A stretch of 64,000 nt of DNA from the NCBI GenBank assembly GCA_964653435.1, contig CAZZFA010000013.1:7407-71406 (forward strand), in the 5' to 3' direction. The position numbers were made by a program, and so were the translations under genes. Below, piece by piece: positions 7,206 to 61,980 of the stretch. Under the pieces are notes generated by a model. It did not search any database. It saw only the letters and a program-made list of their open reading frames with translations, and was not told the origin of the DNA. Source of the DNA: an uncultured Planctomycetales bacterium (GTDB lineage: Bacteria; Planctomycetota; Phycisphaerae; UBA1845; PWPN01). Within the stretch, counting starts at the first letter, position 1; each line of letters opens with the position of its first letter.

Positions 7206-8497
7206 CAGGGCCGGCGCACATTAAGCTCCTTGTTTGGTAAGGACTTCCAGAAGGAACTCGTTGTTCCATCCGGCGACCTGGCTCTTTCCCTTGATGCTGT
7301 CGGTGGAGGGGTGGCGATTGAGAAGGCTGATGGCGAAGCGACGAAGCCAGGAGAGATTGTTGGCCATGTGACGATTGCGGGTGCGGCTCTGGTCCTCGTC
7401 GAAGGTCACATCGAGGACCCAGTGCAGGCAATTCTCGATGCCCCAATGCCCCCGCACGGCCTGCGCAAACCGCGGCCCGCTGAGATACCGGCTGGTGAGG
7501 AAATAGCGGGTGTCTCCGCTCAGGGTGCCGTCGCGGTTCTCCACGAGGCGAACCGCCATCCCGATCGCCCGGGCCCCCGGCCACGCGTTCGTCCCAGGGA
7601 AATCGCGGGGGATCCTGGCCAACCCATAGTAGCGCTCGTCGCGGCGGCCGTGTCCCGTCTCGCGCGTCTGATGTTCCCAATGCGGACGCTTCCGAAGCTC
7701 GTCCTGACGCTCATCGCGGAACACCTCTTCGATCGCCGCGTAGAGCGTCGGCTGATTGTCCTTGACCGCCAGGACATAATCCCCGCCCCCGTCCACGATC
7801 TTCTGGGCGATGTCCTTCTGGCACCCCATCGCGTCGATGGTCACCACAGCCCCCTGCACGTCGATCCGGTCGAGGAGGGCCGGAATGGCCGTGATCTCGT
7901 TCGATTTTTCCTCCGTCGCCACCTGCCCCAACGCCAGGCCGTGGTCGCCGGCCCAGGCGCTGACCAGATGCAAGGGGCCCAGCCCCTCGCGCTGATCATG
8001 CGAACGACGCAAGGTCTTGCCGTCGATGGCGATCATCCGGGCTCCTTCTTCTTCGTGGATCAGGCTCGCAATCCACGACTGAAAACAGGTCTGAAAGGCT
8101 TCCGGCCGCAGGGTGGAAAGAACCCGGCGAACACAGTCCCGCGACGGAAGACCATGCGGAAGGGTCAGCACGCTCTGGAGCCATTCCTTCTTGGCCCGTG
8201 CCCACCGGGCGATCGCCGTCGGCCCCGAGCAACCCACCATGACCCCACAGACCGCAATGGGAATCACCTCCACCAGCAAATGCCGACGATTGCGGTGATG
8301 CCGAGGGTCCGGCAACGACTCAAAGTGCTTGACGATCGAACGCAAACCGACCGTAACCGCCGCGCGCCTTCGTCATCGATCCGCTCCTTCTGCAAGAACG
8401 CCTCGCCACTCCATGCGGCGAGCTTGCAGGAGCTATAACCGATCAACACCCATCGCGCCAGCCTGCCTATCTTGTCCAGTTATGCGCGCTGGCCCTG
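7206..8497 (-). mobile_element. ISAs1-family insertion sequence (1292 bp)
   Basis: IRs CAGGGCCGGCGCACATT (7206-7222) and reverse complement of 8481-8497 (CAGGGCCAGCGCGCATA), 14/17 identical. Flanks GTAATTCTCT (7196-7205) and GTAATCCTCT (8498-8507) form a 10-bp TSD with one mismatch. Confidence 0.93.
7221..8345 (-). CDS. ISAs1-family DDE transposase
   Basis: HFESLPDPR N-terminus; IAIDGKTLRRS, KSNEITAIP, VTIDAMGCQKDIA, DYVLAVKDNQP and RGHWGIENCLHWVLDVTFDED motifs; D-D-E residues intact. Confidence 0.96.
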   Translation of the reverse strand: MRSIVKHFESLPDPRHHRNRRHLLVEVIPIAVCGVMVGCSGPTAIARWARAKKEWLQSVLTLPHGLPSRDCVRRVLSTLRPEAFQTCFQSWIASLIHEEEGARMIAIDGKTLRRSHDQREGLGPLHLVSAWAGDHGLALGQVATEEKSNEITAIPALLDRIDVQGAVVTIDAMGCQKDIAQKIVDGGGDYVLAVKDNQPTLYAAIEEVFRDERQDELRKRPHWEHQTRETGHGRRDERYYGLARIPRDFPGTNAWPGARAIGMAVRLVENRDGTLSGDTRYFLTSRYLSGPRFAQAVRGHWGIENCLHWVLDVTFDEDQSRTRNRHMANNLSWLRRFAISLLNRHPSTDSIKGKSQVAGWNNEFLLEVLTKQGA

Positions 8498-8589: not shown

Positions 8590-8660
8590 GTCGGCATATG
8601 GAACTGCTCTGGTGCGGGCAGTCGCGCGTTGATTAATCCAGCCATGTGAGGAACGACCGT

Positions 8661-11051
8661 ATGGTAATGCCGCTGCGACGATCCGGTGCGTGGCCTTGGG
8701 CGATGGTGGCGGTGTTGGCTGCCGGCTCGGCAGCAGAAGGGGCGCAGGGGCTTGTCAGCGCGACCGGGGATAACGAGTGCGGTCAGCTCGGTACCGGAGA
8801 CGCACCGTGGTTTCCGCGGCAGACATTGATCGCCGGGCAGGTGACCGCGATCGCGAGGGGCGGGGCGCATGGCGTCGCGCTCACGTCGGACCGGAGGTTG
8901 TGGGCGTGGGGAAACAACATGTACGGCCAGTTGGGCGACGGGACGACGACGAATCGCGCGACGCCCGTTGCGGTCTCGGTCCTGTCGAGTGTGATCGCGG
9001 TCGCGGGGGGCTACTATCACAATCTCGCGATCCAGTCGAATGGGATGGTGTGGGCGTGGGGTCGCAACGAATACGGCCAGTTGGGCGACGGGACGCGGTC
9101 GAATCGCGCGACGCCCGTTGCGGTTTCGACTCCGGCGGGCGTGATCGCGGTTGCGGCCGGTGGCCAGCACAGCCTCGCGCTGAAGTCGGACGGGACGGTG
9201 TGGGCGTGGGGAAACAACTACTATGGCCAGTTGGGCGATGGGACAACGACGATAGATCGCCCGACGCCCGCGGCGGTCTCCGGCCTGACGGGCGGAATCG
9301 CGATCGCGGGCGGGTTGTATCACAGCCTCGCGCTGAAGTCGGACGGGACGGTATGGGCGTGGGGATGGAATCACGGCGGCCTGTTGGGTGATGGGACGAC
9401 GACGGAGCGCTGGACGCCCGTTGCGGTCTCGGGCCTGACGGGAGTGATCGCCATTGCGGCGGGCGGCTTCCACAGCCTCGCGCTGAAGTCGGACGGGACG
9501 GTGTGGGCGTGGGGAAGCAACTACTACGGTCAGTTGGGCGATGGGACGACGACGGAGCGCTGGACGCCCGTTGCGGTCTCGGGCCTGACGGGTGTGGTCG
9601 CAGTGGCTGCGGGCGAGTATCACAGCCTCGCCGTGAAGTCGGACGGGACGGTGTGGGCGTGGGGTTACAATAACCATGCCCAGTTGGGCGATGGGACGAT
9701 CACGACTCGCATGGGGCCCGTGGCCGTTTCCGGTCTGACCGACGTGATCGCGGTAGCGGCAGGCGTTTGGCACAGCTTCGCGCTCAAGTCGGACGGGACG
9801 GTGTGGGCGTGGGGATGGAACCGCGACGGCCGGTTGGGTGACGGGACCACAGAGACGATTCGTTCAGTGGCCGTACTTGTGCCAGGCCTCAGCGGCCTGA
9901 TCGCGGTGGCCGCGGGCGCGACTGACAGCCTCGCGATCAGATCGGACCAGACAGTGTGGGCGTGGGGAGACAACGGCTACGGCCAGTTGGGCGACGGCAC
10001 CACGACTTCGCGCTCGGCGCCGGTCGCTGTCTCCGGCCTGACGGGCGTGACCGCGGTGGCGGCGAGCGGGTATCACAGGCTCGCGCTCAGATCGGACCAG
10101 ACGGTGTGGGCGTGGGGAGGCAACGGCTACGGCCAGTTGGGCGACGGCACCACGACTTCGCGCTCGGCGCCAGTCGCGGTCTCGGGCCTGACGGGTGTGA
10201 TCGCGGTGGCGGTGGGCGAGTATCACAGCCTCGCCGTGATGTCGGACGGCACGGTGTGGGCGTGGGGATGGAACTCCTACGGCCAGTTGGGCGATGGGAC
10301 GACAACGGATCGCGCGACGCCTGTTGCGGTTACGGGTCTGACCGACGTGATCGCGGTCGCGGCCGGCGTGGGTCACAGTCTCGCGCTCAAGTCGGATGGG
10401 ACGGTGTGGGCGTGGGGGTGGAACTACTACGGCCAGTTGGGCAACGGGAGGACGAATCGTTTGACGCCGGCTGCGGTCTCCAACCTCGCAGGTGCGATCG
10501 CGGTGGCGGCGGGTTGGTATCACAGCCTGGCCGTGAAGTCGGACGGGACGGTACGGGCCTGGGGACGCAACGACTTCGGCCAGTTGGGCGACGGGACGGG
10601 GGCGAATAGCCTGGTGCCCGTTGCGGTTTCGGGCTTGACGGGCGTGACCGCAGTGGCGGCGGGCCCGTATCACAGCCTCGCGTGCAAGTCAGACGGGACG
10701 GCATGGGCGTGGGGGCAGAACTCCTCGGGCCAGTTGGGCGACGGGACGACGACGGGTCGCTTCACGCCCGTTGCGGTCTCGGGTCTGACCGGCGTGACTG
10801 GGGTTGCGGCGGGCCAAGGCCACAGTCTCTTCCTGCGGGCGTCGTCCTTTGGAGATTTCGACATGGACGGCGACGTGGACCTGGAGGATTTCGACGTGTT
10901 CCGGGGCTGTTGGAACGGGCCGAACCGTCCGCCGCTCGGCTCGGGCTGCGAGGACGCCGACGCCGACGGCGATGCGGACGTGGACGTGGCGGACTTCCTG
11001 AAGTTTCAGGGTTGTTTCAACGGCCCGGACCGGCCGGCCAAGTGCCCGTAG
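8661..11051 (+). CDS. Secreted RCC1-repeat protein (14 repeats) with C-terminal dockerin-like double Ca-binding module
   Basis: Signal-peptide-like N-terminus; 14 copies of the (V)WAWGxNxxGQLGDG core; C-terminus GDFDMDGDVDLEDF..CWNGPNRPP...DADADGDADVDVADF..FQGCFNGP. Confidence 0.92.
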   Translation: MVMPLRRSGAWPWAMVAVLAAGSAAEGAQGLVSATGDNECGQLGTGDAPWFPRQTLIAGQVTAIARGGAHGVALTSDRRLWAWGNNMYGQLGDGTTTNRATPVAVSVLSSVIAVAGGYYHNLAIQSNGMVWAWGRNEYGQLGDGTRSNRATPVAVSTPAGVIAVAAGGQHSLALKSDGTVWAWGNNYYGQLGDGTTTIDRPTPAAVSGLTGGIAIAGGLYHSLALKSDGTVWAWGWNHGGLLGDGTTTERWTPVAVSGLTGVIAIAAGGFHSLALKSDGTVWAWGSNYYGQLGDGTTTERWTPVAVSGLTGVVAVAAGEYHSLAVKSDGTVWAWGYNNHAQLGDGTITTRMGPVAVSGLTDVIAVAAGVWHSFALKSDGTVWAWGWNRDGRLGDGTTETIRSVAVLVPGLSGLIAVAAGATDSLAIRSDQTVWAWGDNGYGQLGDGTTTSRSAPVAVSGLTGVTAVAASGYHRLALRSDQTVWAWGGNGYGQLGDGTTTSRSAPVAVSGLTGVIAVAVGEYHSLAVMSDGTVWAWGWNSYGQLGDGTTTDRATPVAVTGLTDVIAVAAGVGHSLALKSDGTVWAWGWNYYGQLGNGRTNRLTPAAVSNLAGAIAVAAGWYHSLAVKSDGTVRAWGRNDFGQLGDGTGANSLVPVAVSGLTGVTAVAAGPYHSLACKSDGTAWAWGQNSSGQLGDGTTTGRFTPVAVSGLTGVTGVAAGQGHSLFLRASSFGDFDMDGDVDLEDFDVFRGCWNGPNRPPLGSGCEDADADGDADVDVADFLKFQGCFNGPDRPAKCP

Positions 11052-25675: not shown

Positions 25676-27175
25676 ATGAGTACGGCGGGCGCATCAATTC
25701 GGAACGAGGTTCGGGGGATTGCCCGGCACGGCACGGTTTACATGCTGGCCGCGCTGGCCTCGAAGGCTGTCGGCTTTCTGATGATCCCGCTGTACACGCA
25801 CTACCTCAGCACGGCGGACTACGGGCGTCTTGAGTTGCTGGATCTGACCGCCACGCTGATTTCGATGCTGGCCGGGATGGGCATTGGCACGGCGGCGATG
25901 CGGTACTACTACGATTCGGACGACCCGGTGCGCAGCCGGACGGCCATCTCGACGGCGTTTATCGGAGGGATGCTGTTCATGGGGTCGGGGGCGCTTCTTT
26001 TATGTCTGTGCTCGCGCCCGATCGCCTCGATCCTGCTGGAGGACAGCCGCCTCTACCGGCTGGTGCTCATCCAGGCTGCGGGTCTGTTTCTGGACGGCTC
26101 GTGCAGCATCGCGCAGTCCTACATGCGGATCGGCGGGCGGTCCGGTCTGCTGGTGACGGTCTCCATGCTGCGGCTGGTGGTGGGGCTCGCATTGAACATT
26201 CTGTTCGTGGCTGGTCTGCGTCTCGGCGTCGCAGGGGTCCTCCTCGGCGGATTTGCCGGGGCGCTGGTGGCATTCACGATCCAGTCGGCATGGTTGGTGC
26301 GCCAGGTTCGCATGTGCTTCGATCGCGAGTTGTTCTGGAAACTCTGGCGATACGGAGCGCCGCTGGTGCCTTCTGCCTTCGCGACGTTCGTGGTGGCATA
26401 TGCGGATCGTTTTCTGCTGCGGGCCTTCGGCGAGCTCGGTGACGTGGGAGTCTACTCCCTCGCGTACAAGTTCGGCTTCCTTGTGCAGTTTCTCTTTGTC
26501 GCGAACTTCCACATGGTCTGGGACCCGCGGGTTTTCGATGTCGCGAAACGGCCGAACGCGCAAGAGGTTTTCGCCCGCATTCTCACGTACTGGTTTGCGG
26601 GGCTGTGCTGGGGGGCCTTGGCGTTGTCGGTCGGCGCGCACGCGGTCATTCCGCATATCTCGCCGCAGCCGTACTGGTCCGCAAGGACGTACGTCTGGCT
26701 GATTGCGGCGGCCTACGTCCTCAACGGCGTACGCACATACTGTACGCTGGGCCTGTTGGTGACGGACCGTACGTCCGTCGTGGGGAAGGCTATGGGCCTG
26801 CTCAGCGTCGTATGGATTGGTGCCTACGCGTTGCTCATCTGGAAGATGAAGGCGCTGGGTGGTGCGATCGGCACTCTGCTTTCCTACGGGGGCACTTGCG
26901 TGATTCTGGTCGGGCTCGCGTTGCGTGCCTATCCCATGCCGATCGAATGGCGACGTCTCCTTGCTGTGGCATGTTCCGCGGGCCTTGTCTATGTCGTTGC
27001 AGTGCGTGTCGACGTCGATCATGCGGTGTTTGGGGTGGCATTGAAGGCGCTGTTCGTACTCGCCTACCCTCTGCTGCTTGTCGCCTCCGGCTTTCTGCGG
27101 CAGGAGGAGCGTGCGATGCTGCGAGCGTGGTTGGGGCGGTTCCGGCGAGGTGTCTCACCGCCCTCGAGCGTCTGA
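25676..27175 (+). CDS. wzx: Wzx-type oligosaccharide flippase (MOP superfamily)
   Basis: HGTVYMLAALASKAVGFLMIPLYTHYLSTADYG, RYGAPLVPSA and ADRFLL..FGELGDVGVYSLAYKF; many TM helices. Confidence 0.88.
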   Translation: MSTAGASIRNEVRGIARHGTVYMLAALASKAVGFLMIPLYTHYLSTADYGRLELLDLTATLISMLAGMGIGTAAMRYYYDSDDPVRSRTAISTAFIGGMLFMGSGALLLCLCSRPIASILLEDSRLYRLVLIQAAGLFLDGSCSIAQSYMRIGGRSGLLVTVSMLRLVVGLALNILFVAGLRLGVAGVLLGGFAGALVAFTIQSAWLVRQVRMCFDRELFWKLWRYGAPLVPSAFATFVVAYADRFLLRAFGELGDVGVYSLAYKFGFLVQFLFVANFHMVWDPRVFDVAKRPNAQEVFARILTYWFAGLCWGALALSVGAHAVIPHISPQPYWSARTYVWLIAAAYVLNGVRTYCTLGLLVTDRTSVVGKAMGLLSVVWIGAYALLIWKMKALGGAIGTLLSYGGTCVILVGLALRAYPMPIEWRRLLAVACSAGLVYVVAVRVDVDHAVFGVALKALFVLAYPLLLVASGFLRQEERAMLRAWLGRFRRGVSPPSSV

Positions 27176-27554
27176 TTCCCGTTGCGGGTTCGTATTGGTC
27201 TTCCTCCGGTCCGAGTGACGCGGCCGGGGAGAGCTCCTGCCCGGGGGGACGGCTCCCGACCTTGTTGCCGATGCGCCGCAGAGGAGCGTTCAGGCATTCG
27301 TCGTCGATCCGCCGGATCGCCCGCAGGACCGGAAGGCGCTCTGTGCGAGGCGCCTTCGGCACCGCGCGCTTTGGGCGCGGTCAACGGGAAAGTCCGTCAG
27401 AGCGCGCGGGATAGGCGAGGTATTGGCGTCCTCGGCCAGTCCCCGGGGTGATGCGGAGCCGAGCAACGTTCGTGGAACGCCGGCGTTGGGGGACCGTCGG
27501 CTTCGTTGGCAGGCGGCCCGCGATGGAAACCGCCCCGGGTTTCACGGACTCACG

Positions 27555-27582
27555 TTGCGTGCCGGTTCGGGCCGATTACAAT
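27555..27582 (+). promoter_or_regulatory. Putative sigma70 promoter of the pyruvyltransferase-GT2 gene
   Basis: TTGCGT, 16-nt spacer, TACAAT. Confidence 0.45.
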
Positions 27583-27674
27583 CCAGGTAGACGCGATCCG
27601 GAACGGCGTAACGGATGTGAGGGGCCACCCGCGAACGCAATTGGTCCGATACCCGGCGTCACAGGGAAGACTCC

Positions 27675-29927
27675 GTGAACAGGCCCTCGACGAATGACAC
27701 CGCACAGCCCCATATCGTCGTGTCCGGATGGTATGGTCACAATAACCTGGGCGATGACGCGATCCTGGATGTACTGGTCGCGGAATTGGGCCGGCGGCTG
27801 GGGTCGTGTCTGTTTACCGTGATCACCGAGGCCGTGTCGTCGCCGCAAACCCGCCTGCTGCACGGGTACCCTGTGCGATGGTTGCCGCATCATTCCCCGT
27901 ACCGGCTGCCCAATGCGCTGACTCCCCGTCTCTGGGCGGGCTTCGTTCGCTGTTGGGCGGCTGTGGCAACATGCGATCTGTTCATTCTTGGCGGCGGGGG
28001 TCTGCTTCGCGACAACTTCCGGCGTAGCAACCTTCTCCGTTTGCTTGACGACGTGTTCTGGGCGCGCCTCACCGGTACGCCGGCGGCATTGTTCGCCATC
28101 GGGGCCGGTCCGTTCGTCACCGGATTGGGCAAACGGCTGATCCGTTCGCTCGTGCAGATGGCTCAGTCGGTGAGCGTCCGAGATGAGATCAGCGCCGCCG
28201 CCCTCCGTTCGATTGGTGTTGCGGAGGGCCGCATCCGGATCGTCGGGGACCCGGCCTTGCTTCTGATGGCCGGTTCGCAGATCGAGCTGCCGGAGAGGAA
28301 CGATCGGGTTCGGGTTGCGATCTGTCCATGTCATGGGATGCTCACCGGATTTCGCGGCGGTGCGGCGGGTAACCCGCGGCTGCCGGAGGTCCTGGCGCGT
28401 GCGGCGGACGGGATGGTTGAACGTCTGGGGGCCGAGGTCTGGCTGGTACCCTTCTGTCGTGCCTCCGCGAACGACAACGATGAGGTGCTTTGCCGGGAGA
28501 TACAGGAGCGAATGGCACGCCGGGACCGCGCGGTGCTTGTGACGGATGTGCTTGACGCTCCGCGCACGAAGGCGATGTTGGGACGGATGCACGTTATTGT
28601 GGGTGCCCGGCTTCATTCACTCATTTTTGCGGCGAGCGGCGGCGTGCCGTGTGTCGGAATCAACTACGAGCCCAAAGTCCGCGGATTCATGCGCGCTGTG
28701 GGCCTGGAGGACTACTGCATCGATCCCCTGCAGGCCACACCGGACGGGATCGTTCGGCTTGTGCGCGGCTGCGTCGAACACGGATCGCGCCTGGCCGAGG
28801 TGATCGCATCGCATGTTGCGGCGTCGCAGGGGCGGACGAATGCCGTGCTCGACCAGTTGGCCGGTTTGGCGTCGTCCCACGCCGGCCGTCGCGCGAAAAG
28901 GACCGCGTGCGGTTCGAAAGCCGCTCATGCGACCTCGACGCGTCGCCTGGCGAATACGGGGGCAGGCCCGGCGGCCCCGGGCACAGTCAGCGTCGTCATC
29001 CCGGCGTACAATGCCGCGTCGTACGTTTCCGATGCCATCGACAGCGTGCTGGCGCAGACGTATCCGGCGCACGAGATTATCGTGGTCGACGACGGATCGA
29101 CCGACGATACGGTCGGGGTCGTACGGCGCTACGGAGACCGGGTCATCCTGCTTCAGCAGCCCAACCGCGGACCGGCGGCAGCCCGCAATGCCGGGATCCG
29201 CAGGGCAACCGGCGAGTTCATCGCCTTTCTGGACGCGGACGATATCTGGACCGATCGCAACCTCGAGTTGCAGGTTCGGATCCTGAGCGAGCATCCCCGG
29301 CACGTCCTCTCGTACGGATACGTTCGGCGATTTGTCGGAGCGGTCTCCCCGGAACTCCGCCGTGCGACGCCGCACGACAGATTCTGGCCGCAGGGCGACG
29401 TCTCTGCGGCGCTGGTTCACGATACGATATGGGCGACCTGCGCCGCACTGATCCGCCGGAGCGTCCTTGTGCGCACGGGCGGATTTGACGAGGAGCTTCG
29501 CGTTGGTGAGGACTACGACCTTTGGCTTCGCATCGCCGGGCAGGGACCGGTTTGCTGCGTGTCCCACTACGTTGGGGCGATCCGGTTGCGCCGCGAGAGC
29601 GTGACGAGGTCACAGCGGTTCCGCACCACTCCCCCGGAATTGTGCGTGATCCGGCGCCACCTGGATCGCACGCCCGGGCTGCGCGAGCGCGTTGGGCGAA
29701 GGGCGCTACGGCGGCGGTTGGCGAAGTGTTATCTCGACTTGTCGCTGCATGATCTGCAGAGGAACCTGCTTGCGGCATCCCTGCTGCACTACGGCGTCGG
29801 AATGGCGATTGCCCCGACGCAGGCGCGGACGGTCGGTTGTTATGTGGGTGCGATGGTGCGGTGTATCCTGAGATTCACCGTCGGGCTCCTTTCGCCGAGG
29901 GACCAGCCGAGCGGGGAGGGCGGATAG
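27675..29927 (+). CDS. Fusion: polysaccharide pyruvyltransferase (CsaB/WcaK-like) + GT2 glycosyltransferase
   Basis: N-half VSGWYGHNNLGDDAI, ILGGGGLLRD, VSVRDEIS, VGDPALL, GARLHSLIFA, INYEPKV. C-half VSVVIPAYNA, VVDDGSTD, NRGPAAARNAG, FLDADD, EDYDLWLR. Confidence 0.88.
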   Translation: MNRPSTNDTAQPHIVVSGWYGHNNLGDDAILDVLVAELGRRLGSCLFTVITEAVSSPQTRLLHGYPVRWLPHHSPYRLPNALTPRLWAGFVRCWAAVATCDLFILGGGGLLRDNFRRSNLLRLLDDVFWARLTGTPAALFAIGAGPFVTGLGKRLIRSLVQMAQSVSVRDEISAAALRSIGVAEGRIRIVGDPALLLMAGSQIELPERNDRVRVAICPCHGMLTGFRGGAAGNPRLPEVLARAADGMVERLGAEVWLVPFCRASANDNDEVLCREIQERMARRDRAVLVTDVLDAPRTKAMLGRMHVIVGARLHSLIFAASGGVPCVGINYEPKVRGFMRAVGLEDYCIDPLQATPDGIVRLVRGCVEHGSRLAEVIASHVAASQGRTNAVLDQLAGLASSHAGRRAKRTACGSKAAHATSTRRLANTGAGPAAPGTVSVVIPAYNAASYVSDAIDSVLAQTYPAHEIIVVDDGSTDDTVGVVRRYGDRVILLQQPNRGPAAARNAGIRRATGEFIAFLDADDIWTDRNLELQVRILSEHPRHVLSYGYVRRFVGAVSPELRRATPHDRFWPQGDVSAALVHDTIWATCAALIRRSVLVRTGGFDEELRVGEDYDLWLRIAGQGPVCCVSHYVGAIRLRRESVTRSQRFRTTPPELCVIRRHLDRTPGLRERVGRRALRRRLAKCYLDLSLHDLQRNLLAASLLHYGVGMAIAPTQARTVGCYVGAMVRCILRFTVGLLSPRDQPSGEGG

Positions 29928-29928
29928 G

Positions 29929-31101
29929 ATGCTGACGGTACGCATTGTCGAACGGCCCGATGAATGGGCCGCACTGGCCGGCGGATGGGAGGCCTTGCTC
30001 GCGGCCAGTCCCACGGATTCCGTGTTCCTTACCCACGAATGGCTCGGACTCTGGTGGCAAAGCTTCGGTTCGCCGGAAGATCGCCTGTATGTGGCGGCTG
30101 CCTTCCGGGACGGTCAGCTCTGCGCCGTCGCTCCGCTGCGGTGGCGCTGCGAGAGGATTGCGGGCCTGCGTTTGCGTCTGCTCCGGTCGCTTACCAACGA
30201 GCACACGCCGAAGTACGACTGGCTCTGGCGACCGGGAGACACCGAGGCGATCACCGTGCTGCTCGATGCGATTTGCCGGCGGTCGGATTGGGACGTGCTT
30301 CGGCTTGACTATGTGCCGGCCGACTCTGCCACGGTGCCCGCCCTCGTGGCGTTTGGTCTTGCCAGGCGTCTGCGCACGTCGGATGAATGGTGTATCAGCA
30401 GCCCGTACGTCACGATCCGTGGGACCTGGGACGAGTACGAGGCGTCGCTGTCCGACAACTTCGGTTCCAAGACGCGTAAGGCCGAACGCAGACTTCGAAA
30501 AGCCGGACGGCTCGATGTTGTGGAAGTCCGCGGTGGTCCCGGCCTCAACGAGGCGCTACGCAGGGCATACGTCGTCGAGCAATCGAGCTGGAAAGGCGCG
30601 GCGGGCAGCGCTATCGCCGACCGTCCGAACGAAGAGCGCTTCTACACGCAGTTGGCGGCGGCGGCATCCGCGAGGGGCTGGTTTCGCCTGTTCTTCCTTG
30701 AGCTGGACGGACGGCCCATCGCATTTCACTACTGTTTCGACTACAAACGAACGATGTTCTCGGTAAAGATCGGCTATGATCCGGCCTTCGCCAAGTACTC
30801 GCCCGGCACAGTCCTGAAGTGGCTGATTCTGAAACCGCTGTTCGAGCAGCGCGCGCACGACAAGTTCGACATGCTCGGCGCGGCCAGCGGCTCCAAGCTG
30901 CGATGGACCAAGGAGGTCCAGGATCTCCGCAGCGTCTGTCTGTTCGCCCGCGGTCTGCGGGGGCGGCTGGCATACGAACTCCAGGTCGGCATCAAGCGCC
31001 GCCTGGAGCATTACCCGCGCTTTCGAGAAGCGGCGAAACGCATCAAGAGGCGGATGTCTGTTCAGCGCGACGCCAGACGGGATGTCAGCGAAAACGCATA
31101 A
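29929..31101 (+). CDS. CelD/BcsL-type GNAT (Acetyltransf_6) family protein
   Basis: WEALLAAS..VFLTHEWL, PYVTIRGTWDEY, LELDGRPIAFHY, KIGYDPAFAKYSPG, FDMLG..KLRW. Confidence 0.88.
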   Translation: MLTVRIVERPDEWAALAGGWEALLAASPTDSVFLTHEWLGLWWQSFGSPEDRLYVAAAFRDGQLCAVAPLRWRCERIAGLRLRLLRSLTNEHTPKYDWLWRPGDTEAITVLLDAICRRSDWDVLRLDYVPADSATVPALVAFGLARRLRTSDEWCISSPYVTIRGTWDEYEASLSDNFGSKTRKAERRLRKAGRLDVVEVRGGPGLNEALRRAYVVEQSSWKGAAGSAIADRPNEERFYTQLAAAASARGWFRLFFLELDGRPIAFHYCFDYKRTMFSVKIGYDPAFAKYSPGTVLKWLILKPLFEQRAHDKFDMLGAASGSKLRWTKEVQDLRSVCLFARGLRGRLAYELQVGIKRRLEHYPRFREAAKRIKRRMSVQRDARRDVSENA

Positions 31102-31125
31102 TTAGGATTCCGCGGACGGAACCGC

Positions 31126-31154
31126 TTGCAAAAAACGCCAAGTGTGGGTAGGAT
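31126..31154 (+). promoter_or_regulatory. Putative sigma70 promoter of the LVIVD gene
   Basis: TTGCAA (31126-31131), 17-nt spacer, TAGGAT (31149-31154). Confidence 0.6.
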
Positions 31155-31250
31155 TCATTCAGTGTGGCCACAGGCGGCGATCGGGCGGTTGCTTCGCGGC
31201 CAGTGAGGTAACCGGCGGAGCCCGGACAGCCGGCTGGACGGAGGTGCTGA

Positions 31251-33437
31251 ATGGGGCGATTCGGAGGCGCGCGTGGGTTGCGGGAGCCGCTCGACGTGGG
31301 CAAGGCTCACGTCACAAAGCGGCAAATTCGTGAGCGGCGCCCGTCGGTCGCGGGCGGCGTGAGGGGCGTCACGCAAGGCAAGCTGAAGGGCCGCCGGCCC
31401 GCGCGGGATGCGCTTGTCGCAACGCTGACGGCGCTGGCGGTGGTGGCGAGCCCGGCTCGCAGTCTCGCCGTCGATGCTATCAGTGTCGAACTGGTGGGCC
31501 AGTACGGCGGGATCAGCTACGCCGTGGCGGTCGAAGATGACCGCGCTTATCTGGGCGCGGGGCCGCGGTTAGTCATCCTGGACGTCGCGAGTCCGGCGGT
31601 TCCGCGCGTGCTCGCATGGAGCGAGACGCTTCCGGCGATCGTTCGTGGCGTGGCGGTTGCTGGCGGCTATGCGTATGTCGCGGACGACGCTGCCGGCCTT
31701 CAGGTCGTCCAGGTTTCGAATCCGGTCTCTCCTGTCCGCGTGGGGAGCTGCGCAACGGGCGGACTGGCTCTCGGCGTTGCAGTATGCGGCAATTATGCGT
31801 ACGTCTGTGATTACTACCTTGGTCTACTCGTTATCGACGTCTCGAATCCGAGCTTGCCCGTCCGCGTCGGTGGGTACAATACGCCGGGGCGCCCGCGGGG
31901 CGTGGCGGTTGCCGGCCGGTACGCCTATGTTGCCGCCTATACCGGTGGCTTCCAAGTGATCGACATCTCGAATCCTGCGGCGCCGACCCTCGCGGGCGGT
32001 TGCGGGACGACGGGGTATACCTATGACGTGGCCGTCGCCGGGGCCTATGCATACGTAGCCTGTTCTGACGCAGGCATCGATGTGATCGACATATCTGACC
32101 CAGCCTCGCCCGTCCGCGTGGGTGGCTACAGCACGGGGCGGCAAGCGCTGGGTGTCACCGTGTCCGGCACAACCCTGTATGTGGCGGCCAATGACGGGGG
32201 CCTGCAAGTGATCGATATATCCAATCCCGCCTCGCCGGTTTGGCTCGGCGGCTGTGCCACAGGAAGCTACGCTCATGATGTCGCCGTGGTTGGTCTTTAT
32301 GCGTACGTAGCCAGTCACGACCTCGGCGTGCAGGTGATCGACGTCTCGAACCCCGTTTCACCGGCGCGCGTGGGCGAGTACGACGCAACCGGCTATTCTT
32401 TCGACGTCGCCGTCCGCGGCACTTATGCATATCTGGCCGATTGTCATTTCGGCCTGCAGGTCATCGATATGTCGAGCCCCGCCTCGCCCGTTCGTGCGGG
32501 CGGCTACGACACGAGCGGTTGCGCGCGGGGCCTGACCCTTTCGGGCACCTACGCGTATGTGGCCGATGTGGAAGCCGGCCTGCAAGTGATCGACATTTCA
32601 AATCCGGTTGCACCGTTCCGGGCGGGCGTCTGCGACACCTCGGGCTCCGCGTACGGCGTGGCCGTCGTCGGGGGCTATGCATATGTGGCGGACGGCGAAG
32701 CCGGCCTCCAGGTCATCGACGTCTCAAACCCTGCTTCGCCATTTCGCGTGGGCGGCTGCGATACACCCGGGTTTGCGCACGGCGTAGCCGTATCCGGAGG
32801 CTATGCCTTTGTGGCTGACCGGCAAGCCGGTCTGCACGTCATTGACATCTCTGATCCCCGCTCACCGGTTCGCGTGGCCGGCTACCCGAACGACGCCGGC
32901 GGATCCGCCTATGACGTGGCAACCCAGGGGCACTACGTATACGTTGCCGACGGACCGGCCGGCGTGCAGATTCTTGACGTTTCCGATCCGCCCTCGCTGA
33001 TGTGGGTGGCAACCTGCGACACCAGCGGGATCGCTCAACAAGTGGCGTTGTCGGGCAACACGGCGTGTGTGGCCGATGACGACGACTTCCGGGTCCTCGA
33101 TATCTCAGACCCGGCCTCGCCGCGCGTCGTGGGCGGCTACGACAAAAACAAGTGGGCTATGGGCGTGGCAATGGCCGGCAACTATGCTTATGTAGCGTAC
33201 AGCCAGGGCGGCCTGGTGATCCTGCACCTGGGATACGCCGATCTGGACAAAGACGGAGACGCCGACGTGAAGGACTTTGCCCTCTTCCAGGACTGCTTCA
33301 ATGGTCCGAATGCTCGCCCACGTGCGAGTCATTGCACAGGCGCCGACTTCGATGCGGACGGCGACGTGGACCTTCAGGACTTCTCGGTGTTCGAGGCCTG
33401 TTTCAACGGTCCGAATCGTCCACCGGCGTGTCGATAA
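31251..33437 (+). CDS. Secreted LVIVD-repeat protein (about 14 repeats) with C-terminal dockerin-like module
   Basis: Repeats of GxYAYVADxxxGLQVIDISNPxSPxxVG; C-terminus ADLDKDGDADVKDF..FQDCFNGP...ADFDADGDVDLQDF..FEACFNGPNRPPAC. Confidence 0.92.
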   Translation: MGRFGGARGLREPLDVGKAHVTKRQIRERRPSVAGGVRGVTQGKLKGRRPARDALVATLTALAVVASPARSLAVDAISVELVGQYGGISYAVAVEDDRAYLGAGPRLVILDVASPAVPRVLAWSETLPAIVRGVAVAGGYAYVADDAAGLQVVQVSNPVSPVRVGSCATGGLALGVAVCGNYAYVCDYYLGLLVIDVSNPSLPVRVGGYNTPGRPRGVAVAGRYAYVAAYTGGFQVIDISNPAAPTLAGGCGTTGYTYDVAVAGAYAYVACSDAGIDVIDISDPASPVRVGGYSTGRQALGVTVSGTTLYVAANDGGLQVIDISNPASPVWLGGCATGSYAHDVAVVGLYAYVASHDLGVQVIDVSNPVSPARVGEYDATGYSFDVAVRGTYAYLADCHFGLQVIDMSSPASPVRAGGYDTSGCARGLTLSGTYAYVADVEAGLQVIDISNPVAPFRAGVCDTSGSAYGVAVVGGYAYVADGEAGLQVIDVSNPASPFRVGGCDTPGFAHGVAVSGGYAFVADRQAGLHVIDISDPRSPVRVAGYPNDAGGSAYDVATQGHYVYVADGPAGVQILDVSDPPSLMWVATCDTSGIAQQVALSGNTACVADDDDFRVLDISDPASPRVVGGYDKNKWAMGVAMAGNYAYVAYSQGGLVILHLGYADLDKDGDADVKDFALFQDCFNGPNARPRASHCTGADFDADGDVDLQDFSVFEACFNGPNRPPACR

Positions 33438-33472
33438 CCCGGTTACGTCATTGTGGATGCACTGCCAGACCG

Positions 33473-39853: not shown

Positions 39854-40713
39854 TCGAACGGCTCCAGAATGCCGCGGGGCGCGACATGAAGCGGAATGGG
39901 CACCACGGTGTCGTCCTCGTCCCGCGCGAAGGCGAGCGAGCCGACGGTACTCGCGGCGAAGAACTCGACGTTCTCAAAGCGGCTCTGGCAGATGTTCCAG
40001 AGCCGGTTCAGGTTCGTTTCCGCAAAGGCCCGCGGATTATCGAAGCATTCCGGGCAGTAGTCCGCCTTGCAGAGGACCACTGCGATGGGGTTGCCGGCCC
40101 GTCCGCCGCGCCGCGTGGCGAAGCTGCGGTCGACGTAACTCATGAGTTTCAAGGCGAAGTAGTCCGGGTGCGGCGAACCGGACGCGGCGACGGCCGCATC
40201 GATCAGGAGCAGAGCGCCCGCGCTCTTGGCGAGCAGTCCGGTGATGGCGCGGTAGGTCTTGGGTGTTTCCACTTCCTGGGCGAGCGCTTCGCCGGCCATG
40301 TCGGGCAGGAGAAGGTCGAACCACTCCTCGCTTCGCCCGTCCCGATGGCGGACCTGGTAGTAGGCCCATTTCCAGTTGTCGACCTCGAGCGGCGTCTTCG
40401 GCGGAAACCGCCGCGCGCTCATGTGTCCGATCACCGACTGCTGGAGGTTGACGGAGTATGCGCCCTTCGGGATGGCCTCAAAGCCGCCGGCGCGCTTGGA
40501 GAGCATGTCGAGCAGGAAGCCGAGGTAGACGGTCTTGCCGACGTTCGACTCTCCAAGAATCGTGATGATCTTCGGCTCGCGCTGCTGGATCGCGGCCTCC
40601 TCGATCAGCGACATGGGAGCCCCGCAGCCCGAGCACAGCATCGCGTCGGGCGGGTTCTGCCGCTCGCAGATAAGGCATTGGCTGGCCGTGAAAGCTGTCG
40701 TTCCTGACGCCAC
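39823..40713 (-). CDS. TRAFAC-clade (DO-GTPase2-like) GTPase with N-terminal zinc ribbon
   Basis: CLIC-x10-CSGC; G1 GESNVGKT; G3 DMAG; G4 CKAD; G5-like AAST. Confidence 0.82.
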   Translation of the reverse strand: MASGTTAFTASQCLICERQNPPDAMLCSGCGAPMSLIEEAAIQQREPKIITILGESNVGKTVYLGFLLDMLSKRAGGFEAIPKGAYSVNLQQSVIGHMSARRFPPKTPLEVDNWKWAYYQVRHRDGRSEEWFDLLLPDMAGEALAQEVETPKTYRAITGLLAKSAGALLLIDAAVAASGSPHPDYFALKLMSYVDRSFATRRGGRAGNPIAVVLCKADYCPECFDNPRAFAETNLNRLWNICQSRFENVEFFAASTVGSLAFARDEDDTVVPIPLHVAPRGILEPFEWIIDRIRTS

Positions 40714-54986: not shown

Positions 54987-55268
54987 GGTGGGTAATTACC
55001 CCACCGGGCAGTCCGGCAGCGCCGCTCGCTGGGGGGACGGAGCGAAAACGATTTGAGGGAACCGCGGCAGCGGCGAGTGTGGCGCTGGCAGCACCCACAT
55101 CTCCCAGACGGTTCGTGAAACGTTTATTTGAGGAAGCGCGATCGAGGCAGCCGATCGTCCGTGCCGGGCGTGTCGGCGGCTGACCGGGTTTTTTCGGCTG
55201 GGTGTCATTGTGGGAACTGTGCCGGCGGGCCCGTTGCGGGTGTCCGGCGGAACGAAAGGAGCTTTTCG

Positions 55269-56594
55269 ATGAGAACGTCGGTACGAAACGCGGTGATCGT
55301 GAGTGCGCTCGCGTTCGCGACAGTGCTGTCGAGCGGCGCTTGGGCGCTGCCTTTATCACAGGTCTTCTTCCCTGAGGCAAACCGCCTTATCGGGGACCCG
55401 CGCCGGGGGACGGACGAGATTTATCAGGGTGTTGCCTATAGGAACCCGGACAACATCATCAATGGCACGCCGACAGTGCCCGGTCAGGTTCCCGGCCAGA
55501 TCGAGTCGCTTCGCAATGTCGGTATCGGGTACACGGGGATCAATATCCCGCAACCCTGTGATGTTACGGGAGTGCCGGCGGATCCGCGAAGCGTGTTGGG
55601 GTCGAACCCCGCGGAGGTATTGGCAGGCGCGAATCCACTGGTGAGCAACACGTGGGGTGTCCGTGCCGGTGCGGCCGTCCAGTGGCAGACCGACCAGGAT
55701 GGTTCTGCCGTGTCCCTGACGCCCCTGGGCGTCAACAGCGGGCAGGCCTACAACATTACTCCGGGCACATTGTTCTCCGTGGCGTTCGGCCTGAATCCTG
55801 CCGGCGTGCCGACAATCGTATCGCCCGTCGACGTCGGCGGCGCGCCGGGGTCGGTCGGCGGCGACGGCCTTGCCGATTTCGTCCCGTGGGTGCGTGATCT
55901 CGCGAATCCGAATCAGTTGGTCACCGGGTTCGGGATCAATGGTCTGGACCGGGCGGCCATTGACGGGTACTTTGCCGCGCTGGGTCCGAATGCCTTCGGC
56001 GTGGGCGTCACTCCCGCGCAGGTTTACGCGGCCCTGATTGCCCGCGTCGATGTGTGGGAAGGCGGGGCGCTGTTCGATCAGGTCGCCGGTTCGTTCGACG
56101 CGAGGAACTTCAACCACAACGGTGGGACGAACGGGATGGCGGGTGACGAGCTCAACGACGCGGTCGACGGCACACTCCTGCTCAGCGGTGAGCTTTCCAA
56201 TATCCAGATCCAGAACTACTGGACGGCCCAGATTCTTCTCGACGGCCAGGGTCGGCCGGTCCTCAACAACGGGCAGTTCGTAGCCGTGCCCGGTACCGTC
56301 AAGCGGACGATCAAGATCGTGGCCGATGTCACATACGACGGCGGGACGCTGCTGCATTGGCTCACGAATACTCACGGCGTGATCAGCGCCAACTACAACG
56401 GAATCCCGTTTGCGAACGTCGACACGGTGACGCAGGGAACCCATGCGAATATCGCGGCTTACGACTTTGTTGGCGACCGGACGACGTCGTACGACGCTTC
56501 GCAGACGTTCCAGGCGATTCCCGAGCCGCTGACGATGCTTTCGGGCGTTCTGGCGATCGGGGCGCTGGGTGGCTACATCCGCCGTCGGCGATGA
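55269..56594 (+). CDS. Secreted PEP-CTERM protein with ~400-aa unknown domain
   Basis: AAGGAG RBS; signal peptide; C-terminus IPEPLTMLSGVLAIGALGGYIRRRR (PEP, TM helix, Arg cluster). Confidence 0.9.
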   Translation: MRTSVRNAVIVSALAFATVLSSGAWALPLSQVFFPEANRLIGDPRRGTDEIYQGVAYRNPDNIINGTPTVPGQVPGQIESLRNVGIGYTGINIPQPCDVTGVPADPRSVLGSNPAEVLAGANPLVSNTWGVRAGAAVQWQTDQDGSAVSLTPLGVNSGQAYNITPGTLFSVAFGLNPAGVPTIVSPVDVGGAPGSVGGDGLADFVPWVRDLANPNQLVTGFGINGLDRAAIDGYFAALGPNAFGVGVTPAQVYAALIARVDVWEGGALFDQVAGSFDARNFNHNGGTNGMAGDELNDAVDGTLLLSGELSNIQIQNYWTAQILLDGQGRPVLNNGQFVAVPGTVKRTIKIVADVTYDGGTLLHWLTNTHGVISANYNGIPFANVDTVTQGTHANIAAYDFVGDRTTSYDASQTFQAIPEPLTMLSGVLAIGALGGYIRRRR

Positions 56595-58910: not shown

Positions 58911-59337
58911 TCCGATAATACCGCGTGCCCTTGACTGCCTTGTCCCTCGCCGGCATGGTACGGGGGATCCGGCACGGTCAAGATTCCTCCCGACCGGGTG
59001 TTCCCCCGAGAATCATTTTATTGAAATTCGCTGTTTTTTTGTTGAACACGAAGAGGTCTCCAGGCTTAGAATATGGCTGAAGCGGGCGTCTCGCATCGCG
59101 TCGTCGAAGGGGCCTATCGGCGTGGTACGGCGCGTGAGTCGCCGCGCAAGCGAGCGTGGTCGGGCAGCAACCACAACGGGTCTTTTTCGGGGTCGGATTG
59201 TCGGTGGCAGGCAACAGGGCTTGCGGCTGACGGAGTGACCGTGAGCGCGTCGGCGGTTCCGCGCGGCGCGCTCGATGCCGGTCCAGGTGTCGGGGCCGTC
59301 ACCCAGAGTGCGGCCCACGGAACAAAGGAGCTGCTTC

Positions 59338-61713
59338 ATGCCATCCGTGACTCGGAGTGTGGTTCTGAGCGTTGCGGCGGTTGCGATGCTTGCTGCTGCA
59401 GCCGCAGCCGAGACGTGTCCCTTCTACTGGTTCGCGGGGGACAGTAACCGGCTGATCGGCGATCCTCGTCGGGGGACGGACGAGATCTACATCAACTCGG
59501 CCGGTACGTACCTGACCCCGGCGAACATCAAGAACGGCGTGCCGGTCGGCATCGGTCAGGTGCCCGGTCAGATCGAATCGCTGCGTGCCGGCGGCGGGGG
59601 GTACGTGGGTGTCAACGTCCCGCAGCCGTGCGACGTGTCCGGCGTGCCGGCGGATGGGCGGGCGGGCCTGGTTAATCCGATTCCGCCTCTTCCGGCAACC
59701 TACGGTGTGCCCGGCCGGATGTGGGGTGTGCGGGCCGGTGTCGCGGTTCAGTGGCAGACGGTCCAGGACGGCGCATCGCGGCTGCTGAATCCGCTCGGAA
59801 TGGTCAGCGGGCAAGCCTACCGGATAACGCCTGCCACGTTGTTCTCTGTAGCGTTCGGCATGGATCCCGGTGGGGCCGTGACGATCGTTACGCCCGCCGA
59901 CGCAGGCGGCGCGCCCGGATCGGCAGTCGGCGACGGCATCGCGGACTTCCTTGGCTGGGTGCGGAATCTGAACAACCCCGGCCAGTTGATCACGGGCTAC
60001 GGGATCAAGGCGTGGGATCGGGCCATGATCGACGGCTACTTTGCGGCCGACCCGGATGCCTTCGGGGTCGGCGTTACGCCGGCGCAGGTTCATTCGGCGC
60101 TCACTGCCCGCGTCGACGTGTGGTGCGGCGGCGAACTCTTCGATCCGGTCACGGGGGTGTTCGACGCGCGGAACTTCAATCACAACGGTGGAACGTATGC
60201 ACAGCCGGGCGACGAACTCAACGATGCGGTGGACGGCGCGCTACTTCTGACGGGCGAACTCTCGAACATCCAGATCCAGAACGTCTGGACCGCGCAGATC
60301 CTGCTCGATGCGAGGGGGAACCCCGTTTTGGCGAATGGCCAGTTTGTAGCCGTGCCCGGCACGGTCCGGCGGACGATCAAGGCGCAGGGCGATATCCGTT
60401 GGGACGGCGGCTCGCTTTTTGGTTCCCTTGCCAATGCGAACGGCGTCTTCAGCGTCAACTGGAACGACATCCCATTTACGAATGTAGACACGGCTACCAA
60501 CGGCACCCACGCTGTAGTGACGGCCTATGACTTCGTGGGCGATGCGATCACGTCCTACGATGCGTCGGTGACGTTTGAGCTGGCCCGGTGCAAGCTGGAG
60601 GTCAGCAAGACCTGCGAGCCGTCGTACAAGCGGACGTGGGATTGGGACATTACCAAGGAGTGCACGCCTTCGTCGTTGCGTCTGTCGCCGGGAGAGAGCT
60701 ATCCGATCGACGTCGCGATCAAGGTCTGCGAGAAGGGCTACACCGACAGCGACTTCGCCGTGAGCGGCAAGATCACGGTCAAGAACCCCTGCTCCGATGA
60801 CGCGGTGATCGAGGGCATCTCCGACATCGTGTCGCCCGACATCGCAGCCACCGTCACCGAGTGCGACGGCAGCCCGGCCGTGTTCCCGTTCACCCTCCCG
60901 GCGGGGCAGACGCACGAGTGGTGCTATCACGCCGCCTTGCCGGATAAGTCCACCCGCACGAACACGGCCACCGTCACCACCACCGCCGACAGCGCCGTTG
61001 ACGGCAACGTGAGCGATCCGTGCACGATCGATTTCACCAACGTCCCGCCAGCGGACGAGATCGATGAGTGCGTCACCGTTTCGGACGAGCATTGTGTCAC
61101 TACTCCGGTAGAGATATGCGTCGGTGATACTGACCTGGTCAACGGGTGCAAGTCGTTCACGTGTCAGATCCCGGTTACCTGCGAAAACGCTCCGGAGTTC
61201 ACCGACACGGCCACGCTTGTTACGAACGACAGGAGGATTACCAGCACGGCGACGTGCGGCGTCTCCATCGAGTGCGGCGGCGGCTGCACGCTCACCTGGG
61301 GCTACTGGAAGACCCACTCCATCTACGGGCCGGCGGCGCATCCGGATGCGACGTGGTACAAACTCGGCCCGCTCGGGCCGGACACGCCCTTTTTCATCAG
61401 CGGCCAGACGTATTACCAGGTGCTCCAGACCTCCCCGGCGGGCGGCAACGCGTACTATATCCTGGCCCACCAGTACATCGCGGCCCAGCTCAACCAGTTG
61501 GCCGGGGCCCCGATACCCGCGGATGTGCTCGATGCGTTCAACAAGGCCACCAAGCTGTTCCAGACGTACACGCCCGCGGACCTGAACAAGAAGGGCGGCT
61601 CGGCGTCGAAGATGCGCGCCGTGTTTATCGGCTACGCCGGGCTACTGGGCAGCTATAACGAGGGGCTTGTCGGTCCGGGCCATTGTGACAAGCCGGCAGT
61701 TCCCGAGACGTAG
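59338..61713 (+). CDS. Secreted multidomain protein: same unknown domain as 55269-56594, Cys/Thr-rich beta-sandwich region and GCTLTWGYWKTH domain
   Basis: AAGGAG RBS; signal peptide; long identical runs with the PEP-CTERM paralogue (NRLIGDPRRGTDEIY, FDARNFNHNGGT, GELSNIQIQN); ends in TAG. Confidence 0.88.
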   Translation: MPSVTRSVVLSVAAVAMLAAAAAAETCPFYWFAGDSNRLIGDPRRGTDEIYINSAGTYLTPANIKNGVPVGIGQVPGQIESLRAGGGGYVGVNVPQPCDVSGVPADGRAGLVNPIPPLPATYGVPGRMWGVRAGVAVQWQTVQDGASRLLNPLGMVSGQAYRITPATLFSVAFGMDPGGAVTIVTPADAGGAPGSAVGDGIADFLGWVRNLNNPGQLITGYGIKAWDRAMIDGYFAADPDAFGVGVTPAQVHSALTARVDVWCGGELFDPVTGVFDARNFNHNGGTYAQPGDELNDAVDGALLLTGELSNIQIQNVWTAQILLDARGNPVLANGQFVAVPGTVRRTIKAQGDIRWDGGSLFGSLANANGVFSVNWNDIPFTNVDTATNGTHAVVTAYDFVGDAITSYDASVTFELARCKLEVSKTCEPSYKRTWDWDITKECTPSSLRLSPGESYPIDVAIKVCEKGYTDSDFAVSGKITVKNPCSDDAVIEGISDIVSPDIAATVTECDGSPAVFPFTLPAGQTHEWCYHAALPDKSTRTNTATVTTTADSAVDGNVSDPCTIDFTNVPPADEIDECVTVSDEHCVTTPVEICVGDTDLVNGCKSFTCQIPVTCENAPEFTDTATLVTNDRRITSTATCGVSIECGGGCTLTWGYWKTHSIYGPAAHPDATWYKLGPLGPDTPFFISGQTYYQVLQTSPAGGNAYYILAHQYIAAQLNQLAGAPIPADVLDAFNKATKLFQTYTPADLNKKGGSASKMRAVFIGYAGLLGSYNEGLVGPGHCDKPAVPET

Positions 61714-61980
61714 GCGGCTTCGGCTGTGGCGCTGGCCGCGGACCCCGCCGCGGAGGACCTGCCGGCGGATGTGGGCGGCCCGGACTTCGATCTCAGCGGC
61801 AGCGTCGACATCCGCGACTTCATGCACTTCCAGGACTGCTTTGCCGGGCCAAATCGCGTTCCAGCCTCGGGGTGCCGCGATTCGGACGTGGACGGCGACG
61901 GCGACGTGGACATGATGGACTTCGCCGTGTTCCAGGCGTGTTTCAACGGGCCGAACCGCCTGCCGCAGTGCCGGGCCTGA
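61714..61980 (+). other. Orphan dockerin-like module reading in frame immediately after the TAG of the preceding gene (readthrough extension or truncated tail)
   Basis: ...CCC GAG ACG TAG GCG GCT TCG... stays in frame for 88 codons to TGA 61978-61980 and encodes DFDLSGSVDIRDF..FQDCFAGPNR...DSDVDGDGDVDMMDF..FQACFNGPNRLPQC. No RBS or signal peptide of its own. Confidence 0.8.

Follow-up and report, generated by a model that had tools for sequence, protein, structure and literature searches.

Several described systems resemble the element reported here, a C-terminal module of about 66 residues that is encoded three times in 64,000 nucleotides (hereafter, the window; 66% GC) of the genome of an uncultured Planctomycetales bacterium (GCA_964653435.1, contig CAZZFA010000013.1, positions 7,407 to 71,406 of the forward strand). 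Among them are the type I dockerins (PF00404), which consist of two tandem loop-helix units of ~22 residues each, about 35 residues apart, have a dual binding mode and, like the module, are located C-terminally on secreted modular proteins; their hosts are cellulolytic Firmicutes, and non-cellulosomal dockerin-like modules have long been known. A curated NCBIfam model, NF041540 ('GC-type dockerin domain-anchored protein'), describes a C-terminal dockerin-like anchor of similar length (67 positions). PEP-CTERM (PF07589) is also a C-terminal tag placed on many unrelated secreted proteins per genome, and is composed of a short motif, a transmembrane helix and a basic tail that are processed by exosortase. 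Thrombospondin type 3 (TSP3) repeats and EF-hands share with the module their Asp-rich DxDxDGxxDxxD calcium loops, and TSP3 repeats, which form a helix-free calcium 'wire', are disulfide-linked as well. Finally, a genomic hypothesis on freshwater Nemodlikiaceae, the 'planctosome', proposes a non-cellulosomal cohesin-dockerin assembly for which cohesin-bearing proteins were identified and whose cargo is made of peptidases (Andrei et al. 2019, PMC6461901).

The means by which Planctomycetota fix their very large secreted repertoire to the cell surface are poorly understood. Our main finding is that, in uncultured Phycisphaerae of sludge, wastewater and hot springs, dozens of exported proteins per genome carry the dockerin-like module of the window. 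The reading that we favour, with a confidence that lies just on the probable side, is that it is a Ca2+-binding, disulfide-stapled tag attaching its carriers to a shared receptor of the cell envelope. A dockerin-like nature is of an already known kind, and we regard the finding as incremental rather than surprising; the function is one that we infer from sequence. The three copies and the genes that carry them are the following.

8646..11051, + strand: carrier gene 1, a secreted RCC1-repeat protein with the module at its C-terminus (801 amino acids from the first GTG; 13 RCC1 repeats)
10851..11048, + strand: module copy 1, GDFDMDGDVDLEDFDVFRGCWNGPNRPPLGSGCEDADADGDADVDVADFLKFQGCFNGPDRPAKCP, directly before the stop codon (translation, alignment, Pfam and NCBIfam scores, AlphaFold2 (AF2) model)
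31251..33437, + strand: carrier gene 2, a secreted LVIVD-repeat / choice-of-anchor B protein (728 amino acids from the first ATG)
33231..33434, + strand: module copy 2 (translation, alignment, Pfam and NCBIfam scores)
59275..61713, + strand: carrier gene 3, passenger part, a Cys-rich secreted protein that ends at a TAG (open reading frame (ORF), P0254, orthologs P0255 and P0256)
61711..61713, + strand: in-frame TAG in the linker between passenger 3 and module copy 3 (TCG, Ser, in the syntenic ortholog)
61783..61977, + strand: module copy 3, inside an 84-codon ORF starting with GTG (61726-61980), without a signal peptide of its own

Translation of the window yields exactly three copies, at the positions given by the initial annotation. 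They have in common a duplicated DxDxDGDVDxxDF..FQxCFNGPNRPP..C, and the consensus proposed at that time departs from the sequence in the second loop of copy 1, which reads DADGDADVD and has its Gly shifted. The three-copy alignment has a mean column identity of 72%, and its 30 invariant columns include the calcium-loop Asp of both loops, the four Cys and G-P-N. A hidden Markov model (HMM) of the three copies recovers them at E 1e-37 to 1e-40, a result that is circular for those three, and detects no fourth one when all six reading frames of the window are searched (the next best match has E 0.06). Between the full proteins, the C-terminal module is the sole significant similarity (pairwise BLASTP, E 1.8e-22, 3e-14 and 1.7e-15; 49-59% identity). 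DNA identity between the copies is only 63-65%, which argues that they are old and independently maintained, and rules out a recent duplication or gene conversion among the three. Near the N-terminus, all three carriers have a hydrophobic stretch preceded by a basic residue, which resembles a signal peptide by a rough hydropathy test rather than by a trained predictor.

The passengers, in turn, are of different kinds. Carrier 1 contains 13 Pfam RCC1 stretches (E 2e-171) and matches WD40_RLD at E 3e-218. Carrier 2 contains 13 Pfam LVIVD stretches (E 2e-148) and passes the NCBIfam model TIGR04312, choice_anch_B (105.5 bits, cut-off 100); its real start is probably further downstream, ahead of the signal-peptide-like stretch near residue 54, and an ortholog that is 75% identical is present in locus L042. 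The passenger of carrier 3, 812 amino acids long from the ATG at 59275 or 791 from the ATG at 59338 (the public-data call), matches no Pfam or NCBIfam family.

The initial annotation had called the module dockerin-like, and structure prediction agrees. The AF2 model of 10839-11048 (69-sequence alignment) has a predicted local distance difference test score (pLDDT) of 95.1 and a predicted template modelling (TM) score, pTM, of 0.82, with a loop-helix, short helix, loop-helix layout in which helices at 15-24 and 50-59 follow the loops. Its top Foldseek matches in the PDB are dockerins, namely 2y3n_B (TMq 0.67, TMt 0.78, probability 1.0), 3kcp_A, 2vn5/2vn6_B, 4fl4 and 2ozn_B, with weak E-values (>=0.028), in line with the small size of the domain (70 residues); superposition on solved dockerins gives TM values of 0.5-0.78. 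The top sequence-profile matches in the PDB are dockerins too (8x39, 5lxv_B, 5nrk_B and 4uyq_B). As in dockerins, a 12-residue loop, here predicted to bind Ca2+, followed by a helix occurs twice, the loops being at module positions 6-17 and 41-52. EF-hands gave Foldseek TM values of 0.2-0.34 and root-mean-square deviations above 10 Å, and their sequence matches span one loop only. A dockerin fold is thereby predicted with high confidence.

Current curated models miss this module or detect it marginally. On Pfam Dockerin_1 (PF00404, cut-off 22.9 bits), copy 3 scores 26.2 bits, copy 2 19.3 (15.4 in the full protein) and copy 1 18.4; 18 of 75 carriers match at E<=1e-4, and some database relatives bear the automatic name 'dockerin type I domain-containing protein'. 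The NF041540 cut-off of 29 bits is not reached by copy 3 (20.3) or copy 2 (19.9/17.1), and copy 1 has no match; the window modules that do match align over nearly the full length of the model (positions 2-64), and weak matches were obtained for 18 of 69 relatives, the best of them at E 1.2e-4. Such scores rule out membership of NF041540 and place the family outside that model, so that it would not receive its name. The thrombospondin type 3 repeat (PF02412) has no match at E<=0.1 on the three modules or their proteins, and the module differs from TSP3 by the helix that follows each loop. Compared to type I dockerins, it has four conserved Cys (two per half) and an FQxCFNGPNRPP after each helix, it has Asp also at loop positions 7 and 9, and its hosts are Planctomycetota. 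Neither Cys at the four module positions nor the GPNRP motif is found in any of the aligned PDB dockerins, and both are present in every copy, as was said when they were first described as additions to the dockerin plan. We therefore regard the module as an uncharacterised variant of the dockerin fold that is distinct in sequence and whose membership of PF00404 is borderline.

To assess how widespread the module is, 1.84 billion cluster representatives were searched exhaustively with HMMER, which returned 11,911 matches at E<=1e-3, a set that will include ordinary dockerins, 1,685 at E<=1e-10 and 18 at E<=1e-30. All named matches belong to Phycisphaerae, Phycisphaerales or Planctomycetes/Planctomycetota metagenome-assembled genomes (MAGs), for the most part Phycisphaerae, and a near-identical copy of the window LVIVD module occurs in "Phycisphaerae bacterium". 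A pattern scan over 185,579 species-representative genomes led to 196 confirmed stretches, and the loci analyzed here are the best 79, which come from five MAGs. Within these best 79 loci, the MAGs contain at least 48, at least 25, at least 21, at least 10 and at least 1 carriers, respectively. Co-oriented tandem carriers are present in 20 of the 79 loci with two or more and in six with three (for example L001, L022, L045, L052 and L054), and their passengers are mostly unrelated.

The position of the module is nearly constant: no more than 5 residues separate its end from the C-terminus in 206 of 236 proteins (approximately 87%), and this is also true of 86 of 105 genomic segments. When 87 carriers were compared with one another, each of the 3741 module pairs was similar (median 64% identity) versus 113 of the 3741 passenger pairs, which bears out the claim that a tag has been appended to unrelated secreted proteins. 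Signal-peptide-like N-termini were found in 51 of 78 complete carriers, compared to 1 of 78 in an internal control. The initial annotation had taken non-enzymatic propellers as the cargo, a description that proves too narrow: non-enzymatic passenger domains do occur (Ig, TSP3, LVIVD, FG-GAP, fn3, Laminin_G_3, PKD, BACON and lectins, with TSP_3 domains being passenger parts in 6 of 75 carriers), but carriers also include GH25, GH43, FGE-sulfatase and endonuclease I enzymes, and one is named M6 metalloprotease-like by one source.

High copy number is visible in metagenomes as well. In each of the four metagenome runs examined, the second half of copy 3 (61891-61975, 85 bp, DMMDFAVFQACFNGPNRLP) recruits numerous further contigs at >=90% DNA identity, and the summed depth over this interval reaches 294, compared to 7.5 on its flanks; we attribute this excess to the many paralogous modules of these communities. 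The source organism is present in hot-spring, sludge and wastewater metagenomes.

Conservation was counted over 337 distinct modules. In both halves, the Asp at loop positions 1, 3, 5, 7, 9 and 12 are conserved at 92-99%, the hydrophobic V, L, F, F and F positions at 79-91%, and the Q..CFNGPNRPP stretch at 55-97%. The surface residues Q, N and G-P-N-R-P-P are kept in both halves across paralogs, and such sameness of polar and motif residues on the surface would be expected if all copies bind one receptor. As for the cysteines, frequencies are 0.97 for C24, 0.93 for C37 and 0.87 for C59, and 276 of the 337 modules have all four. C3 and C4 are missing together 30 times, versus 14 single losses of either one, and C1 and C2 are missing together 4 times. 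This loss in pairs suggests two disulfides, each within one half (C1-C2 and C3-C4). More divergent relatives (P0124, P0125, P0130, P0140, P0143 and P0216) contain 3-7 tandem units of DxDxDGDVDLxDY..W..CLxGP, often with one Cys pair per unit (7 stretches in P0124, 6 in P0140).

What could such a module do? In relatives of all three passengers, the position of the module is taken by a recognised C-terminal sorting or anchoring signal. For carrier 3, one of these relatives is found in the window itself.

55128..56594, + strand: paralog of the N-terminal ~430 amino acids of carrier 3, ending in a PEP-CTERM, IPEPLTMLSGVLAIGALGGYIRRRR (BLASTP; PF07589)

This paralog, 2.7 kb upstream of carrier 3, is 63% identical to it over 431 amino acids (BLASTP, E 3e-168), and its tail passes PF07589 with 21.0 bits (cut-off 20.7). 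P0257 also has a PEP-CTERM instead of the module, and these two proteins indicate that one passenger family uses either of the two endings. The shared domain of ~430 amino acids matches no Pfam or NCBIfam family, and the AF2 model of the N-terminal domain of carrier 3 has a pLDDT of 32.5 (7-sequence alignment). The family of carrier 2 (choice-of-anchor B) owes its NCBI name to the variable anchors at the C-termini of its members. In Bacteroidia, RCC1 homologs have the sorting domain of the type IX secretion system (T9SS), PF18962, as their last domain, and other RCC1 homologs end in ordinary Cys-free dockerins. By its position, its unrelated Sec-exported carriers and its interchange with other signals, the module falls within the functional class of C-terminal anchoring or sorting tags. 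It differs from PEP-CTERM in being a folded, soluble domain, predicted to bind Ca2+ and devoid of a membrane segment.

We propose the following course of events. The N-terminal signal peptide of a carrier would direct it into the Sec pathway for export, and the module would fold in the oxidising periplasm or at the exterior. It would do so as two tandem units, each made of a 12-residue Asp-rich loop, a helix, the conserved FQxCFNGPNRPP and a second Cys; the folded module would bind two Ca2+, and one disulfide would staple each half (C1-C2 and C3-C4). It may then act as a common attachment tag tying unrelated passengers (binding propellers, Ig/PKD/lectin proteins, glycosidases, nucleases and proteases) to one shared cell-envelope receptor, a role in which it would stand in for PEP-CTERM or other sorting signals of the C-terminus. 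By analogy, the receptor could be cohesin-like, although none was found.

The history of carrier 3 bears on how far the tag is needed. Copy 3 had been taken for an orphan, and turns out to be the tail of the upstream 812-amino-acid protein: it is in frame with the ORF 59275-61713, from which a single TAG separates it. In the orthologs P0255 (895 amino acids, 82% identity, in conserved synteny in MAG CAZMVY01) and P0256, passenger, linker and module form one ORF, and in a DNA alignment (L081, 8270-8688) the TAG of the window corresponds to a TCG in the ortholog, one base having changed from C to A. The shared frame, the fused orthologs and this TCG rule out that copy 3 is an orphan mini-protein. 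Contigs of three independent metagenome runs from different studies (X1, X2 and X4; one hot spring, two bioreactor sludges) all have this TAG unchanged. Such identity in independent runs rules out an assembly or sequencing error, and the TAG is therefore a genuine allele.

Moreover, the 90% identity cluster of P0255 contains 792-amino-acid members that end right after ...GPGHCD, and fused (895 amino acids) and truncated (791/792 amino acids) alleles thus coexist. The DNA of one 792-amino-acid member (L083, 5377-5690) has a TGA stop, a linker shortened by a deletion, and an in-frame remnant of the module with a degraded first calcium loop (SDFNLSASVEICDLMRF) and an intact second half. These alleles indicate that the module was detached from the carrier 3 passenger at least twice independently, by TCG to TAG in the window and with a TGA in L083, and that it then decays. 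Repeated detachment and decay argue against a programmed read-through that would keep the module in use, and we consider the latter unlikely in view of the second lineage, with its own TGA, linker deletion and degraded loop.

Several points weigh against an attachment tag with a shared receptor. The cohesin domain PF00963 is absent among the about 40 ORFs of the window (Pfam), and an HMM of three clostridial cohesins from the PDB had no match in the six-frame translations of the window and the 79 loci, a weak test with its narrow model and about 0.5 Mb of sequence. Neither experiments nor papers on a Cys-bearing CFNGPNRP-type module came up in a literature search; it also retrieved no paper on the GC-type dockerin, nor on a dockerin together with PEP-CTERM. 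Stop codons have cut off the module at least twice in one passenger family in which the passenger stayed intact, so the tag is dispensable for the carrier 3 protein. Lastly, the tandem-unit relatives look like structural calcium-binding arrays rather than docking modules. Regarding gene neighborhoods, the only recurrent non-carrier neighbours in the 79 loci are a few large repeat proteins and pseudopilin-like N_methyl+DUF1559 genes (6 of 79), which adjoin a carrier on the same strand (L009:13-1089, L011:3238-4137, L024:741-1592, L064:4594-5541, L070:1214-2056 and L077:1016-1777). DUF1559 genes are very numerous in Planctomycetota, and their adjacency to carriers is therefore probably near chance. 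A look for expression found neither RNA runs that contain the locus nor proteome data.

These points leave room for other explanations, one of which is a classical cohesin-dockerin assembly, with carriers docking onto the cohesins of a scaffold encoded elsewhere to form a multi-protein extracellular complex. It would account for the dockerin fold (AF2, Foldseek and PDB sequence matches) and for the twofold internal symmetry of the module, whose halves carry the same motif and thereby resemble type I dockerins with their dual binding mode (2vn5/2vn6 are among the fold matches); in addition, both domains were reported in freshwater Phycisphaerae (Nemodlikiaceae), in a hypothetical peptide-degrading complex (PMC6461901). 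However, the shallow search of the window and the 79 carrier loci found no cohesin, the CFNGPNRPP surface motif and the disulfides are without counterpart in cohesin-binding dockerins of solved structure, and the at least 48 carriers of one genome would need a scaffold with many sites, while none adjoins carriers. We consider such an assembly unlikely. The initial annotation had combined surface display or complex assembly with a cohesin-like scaffold: attachment is plausible, given the alternative sorting signals in passenger relatives, but no such scaffold was found in the shallow search of the window and the 79 loci. Its notion of non-cellulosomal docking had already been proposed for Phycisphaerae as the planctosome (PMC6461901), in which there is no statement on a Cys-bearing module; compared to the planctosome, the cargo here is much broader, and no cohesin accompanies it. 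If the module had no partner at all, it might be an autonomous, Ca2+-dependent domain for folding, stability or solubility, or a calcium buffer, as its very Asp-rich loops, the multi-unit arrays of relatives such as P0124 and P0140, the missing receptor, and disulfide staples that suit a small hyper-stable extracellular domain would suggest. This is nevertheless quite improbable, since one would not expect of such a domain a near-constant extreme C-terminal position, an exchange with PEP-CTERM or T9SS signals in paralogs and homologs, or the retention of polar surface Q, N and R across more than 300 copies on unrelated passengers, and since passengers persist without it (792-amino-acid alleles).

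Two further explanations replace the protein receptor by a glycan or by a translocon. In the former, the module would anchor proteins by Ca2+-dependent, lectin-like binding of cell-surface or capsular polysaccharide. PEP-CTERM systems are generally tied to exopolysaccharide production, the LVIVD carrier is in a polysaccharide cluster (flippase, CsaB-like pyruvyl transferase-GT2, two Acetyltransf_6 genes), a GT2 gene is flanked by carrier 3 and the PEP-CTERM paralog, and the failure to find a protein receptor in the window and the 79 loci would be explained. Yet this context comes from the window only, where two of three carriers are beside polysaccharide or GT2 genes; the recurrent neighbours in the 79 other loci are carriers and DUF1559 genes rather than polysaccharide genes, and no dockerin of known structure is known to bind carbohydrate. 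We consider a glycan anchor very unlikely. In the latter, the module would be a C-terminal signal for outer-membrane translocation, recognised by a translocon and possibly cleaved, in the manner of the T9SS C-terminal domain. We give little credence to it: its strictly C-terminal position, its dozens of unrelated Sec-exported carriers per genome and the T9SS domain found at the same place in Bacteroidia RCC1 homologs would fit, but to our knowledge the dockerin fold is without precedent as a translocation signal, dedicated transport genes do not recur beside carriers in the 79 loci, and truncated 791/792-amino-acid alleles with an intact passenger in several populations are unexpected if export needs the module.

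To return to the attachment tag, a more specific version of it can be conceived in which Phycisphaerae display proteins at their surface independently of cohesins: the conserved CFNGPNRPP face of a disulfide-stapled dockerin fold would bind a non-cohesin receptor, such as a polysaccharide of the envelope, a fibre of the pseudopilin-like kind or a protein of the outer membrane, and would provide a genome-wide alternative to PEP-CTERM/exosortase for dozens of proteins. Taken as a whole, this proposal is rather unlikely; if true, stop codons in the linker would switch single proteins from cell-bound to released. A dedicated profile of the module would define the tagged surface and exo-proteome and give a handle on the receptor. 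If a specific partner exists, a small, disulfide-stabilised and Ca2+-dependent dockerin variant could also be useful for protein-assembly engineering.

The carriers of the window have diverse surroundings. Upstream of the RCC1 carrier, at a distance of 300 bp, lies an IS4-type transposase gene (DDE_Tnp_1_assoc + DDE_Tnp_1; 7221-8345, - strand). The polysaccharide biosynthesis cluster that includes the LVIVD carrier extends over 25676-34582; it contains a Polysacc_synt flippase and the CsaB-like pyruvyl transferase-GT2 fusion (27675-29927), and the two Acetyltransf_6 genes, paralogous to each other, flank the carrier directly (29929-31101 and about 33500-34582). Further along, at 38390-41883 on the - strand, genes for proteins with GAP1-N2, Double-GTPase and FGE-sulfatase domains, respectively, follow in a row; GAP1-N2 and Double-GTPase are domains described in GTPase-centred conflict systems. 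Just upstream of the group formed by the PEP-CTERM paralog, the GT2 gene and carrier 3 is a sigma/anti-sigma-like pair (51863-54549, + strand), in which a probable extracytoplasmic function (ECF)-type sigma factor ORF, called by eye, is followed, with overlap, by the gene for a 682-amino-acid protein whose N-terminus weakly resembles an anti-sigma factor (38.6 bits on NF052375, which is below cut-off).

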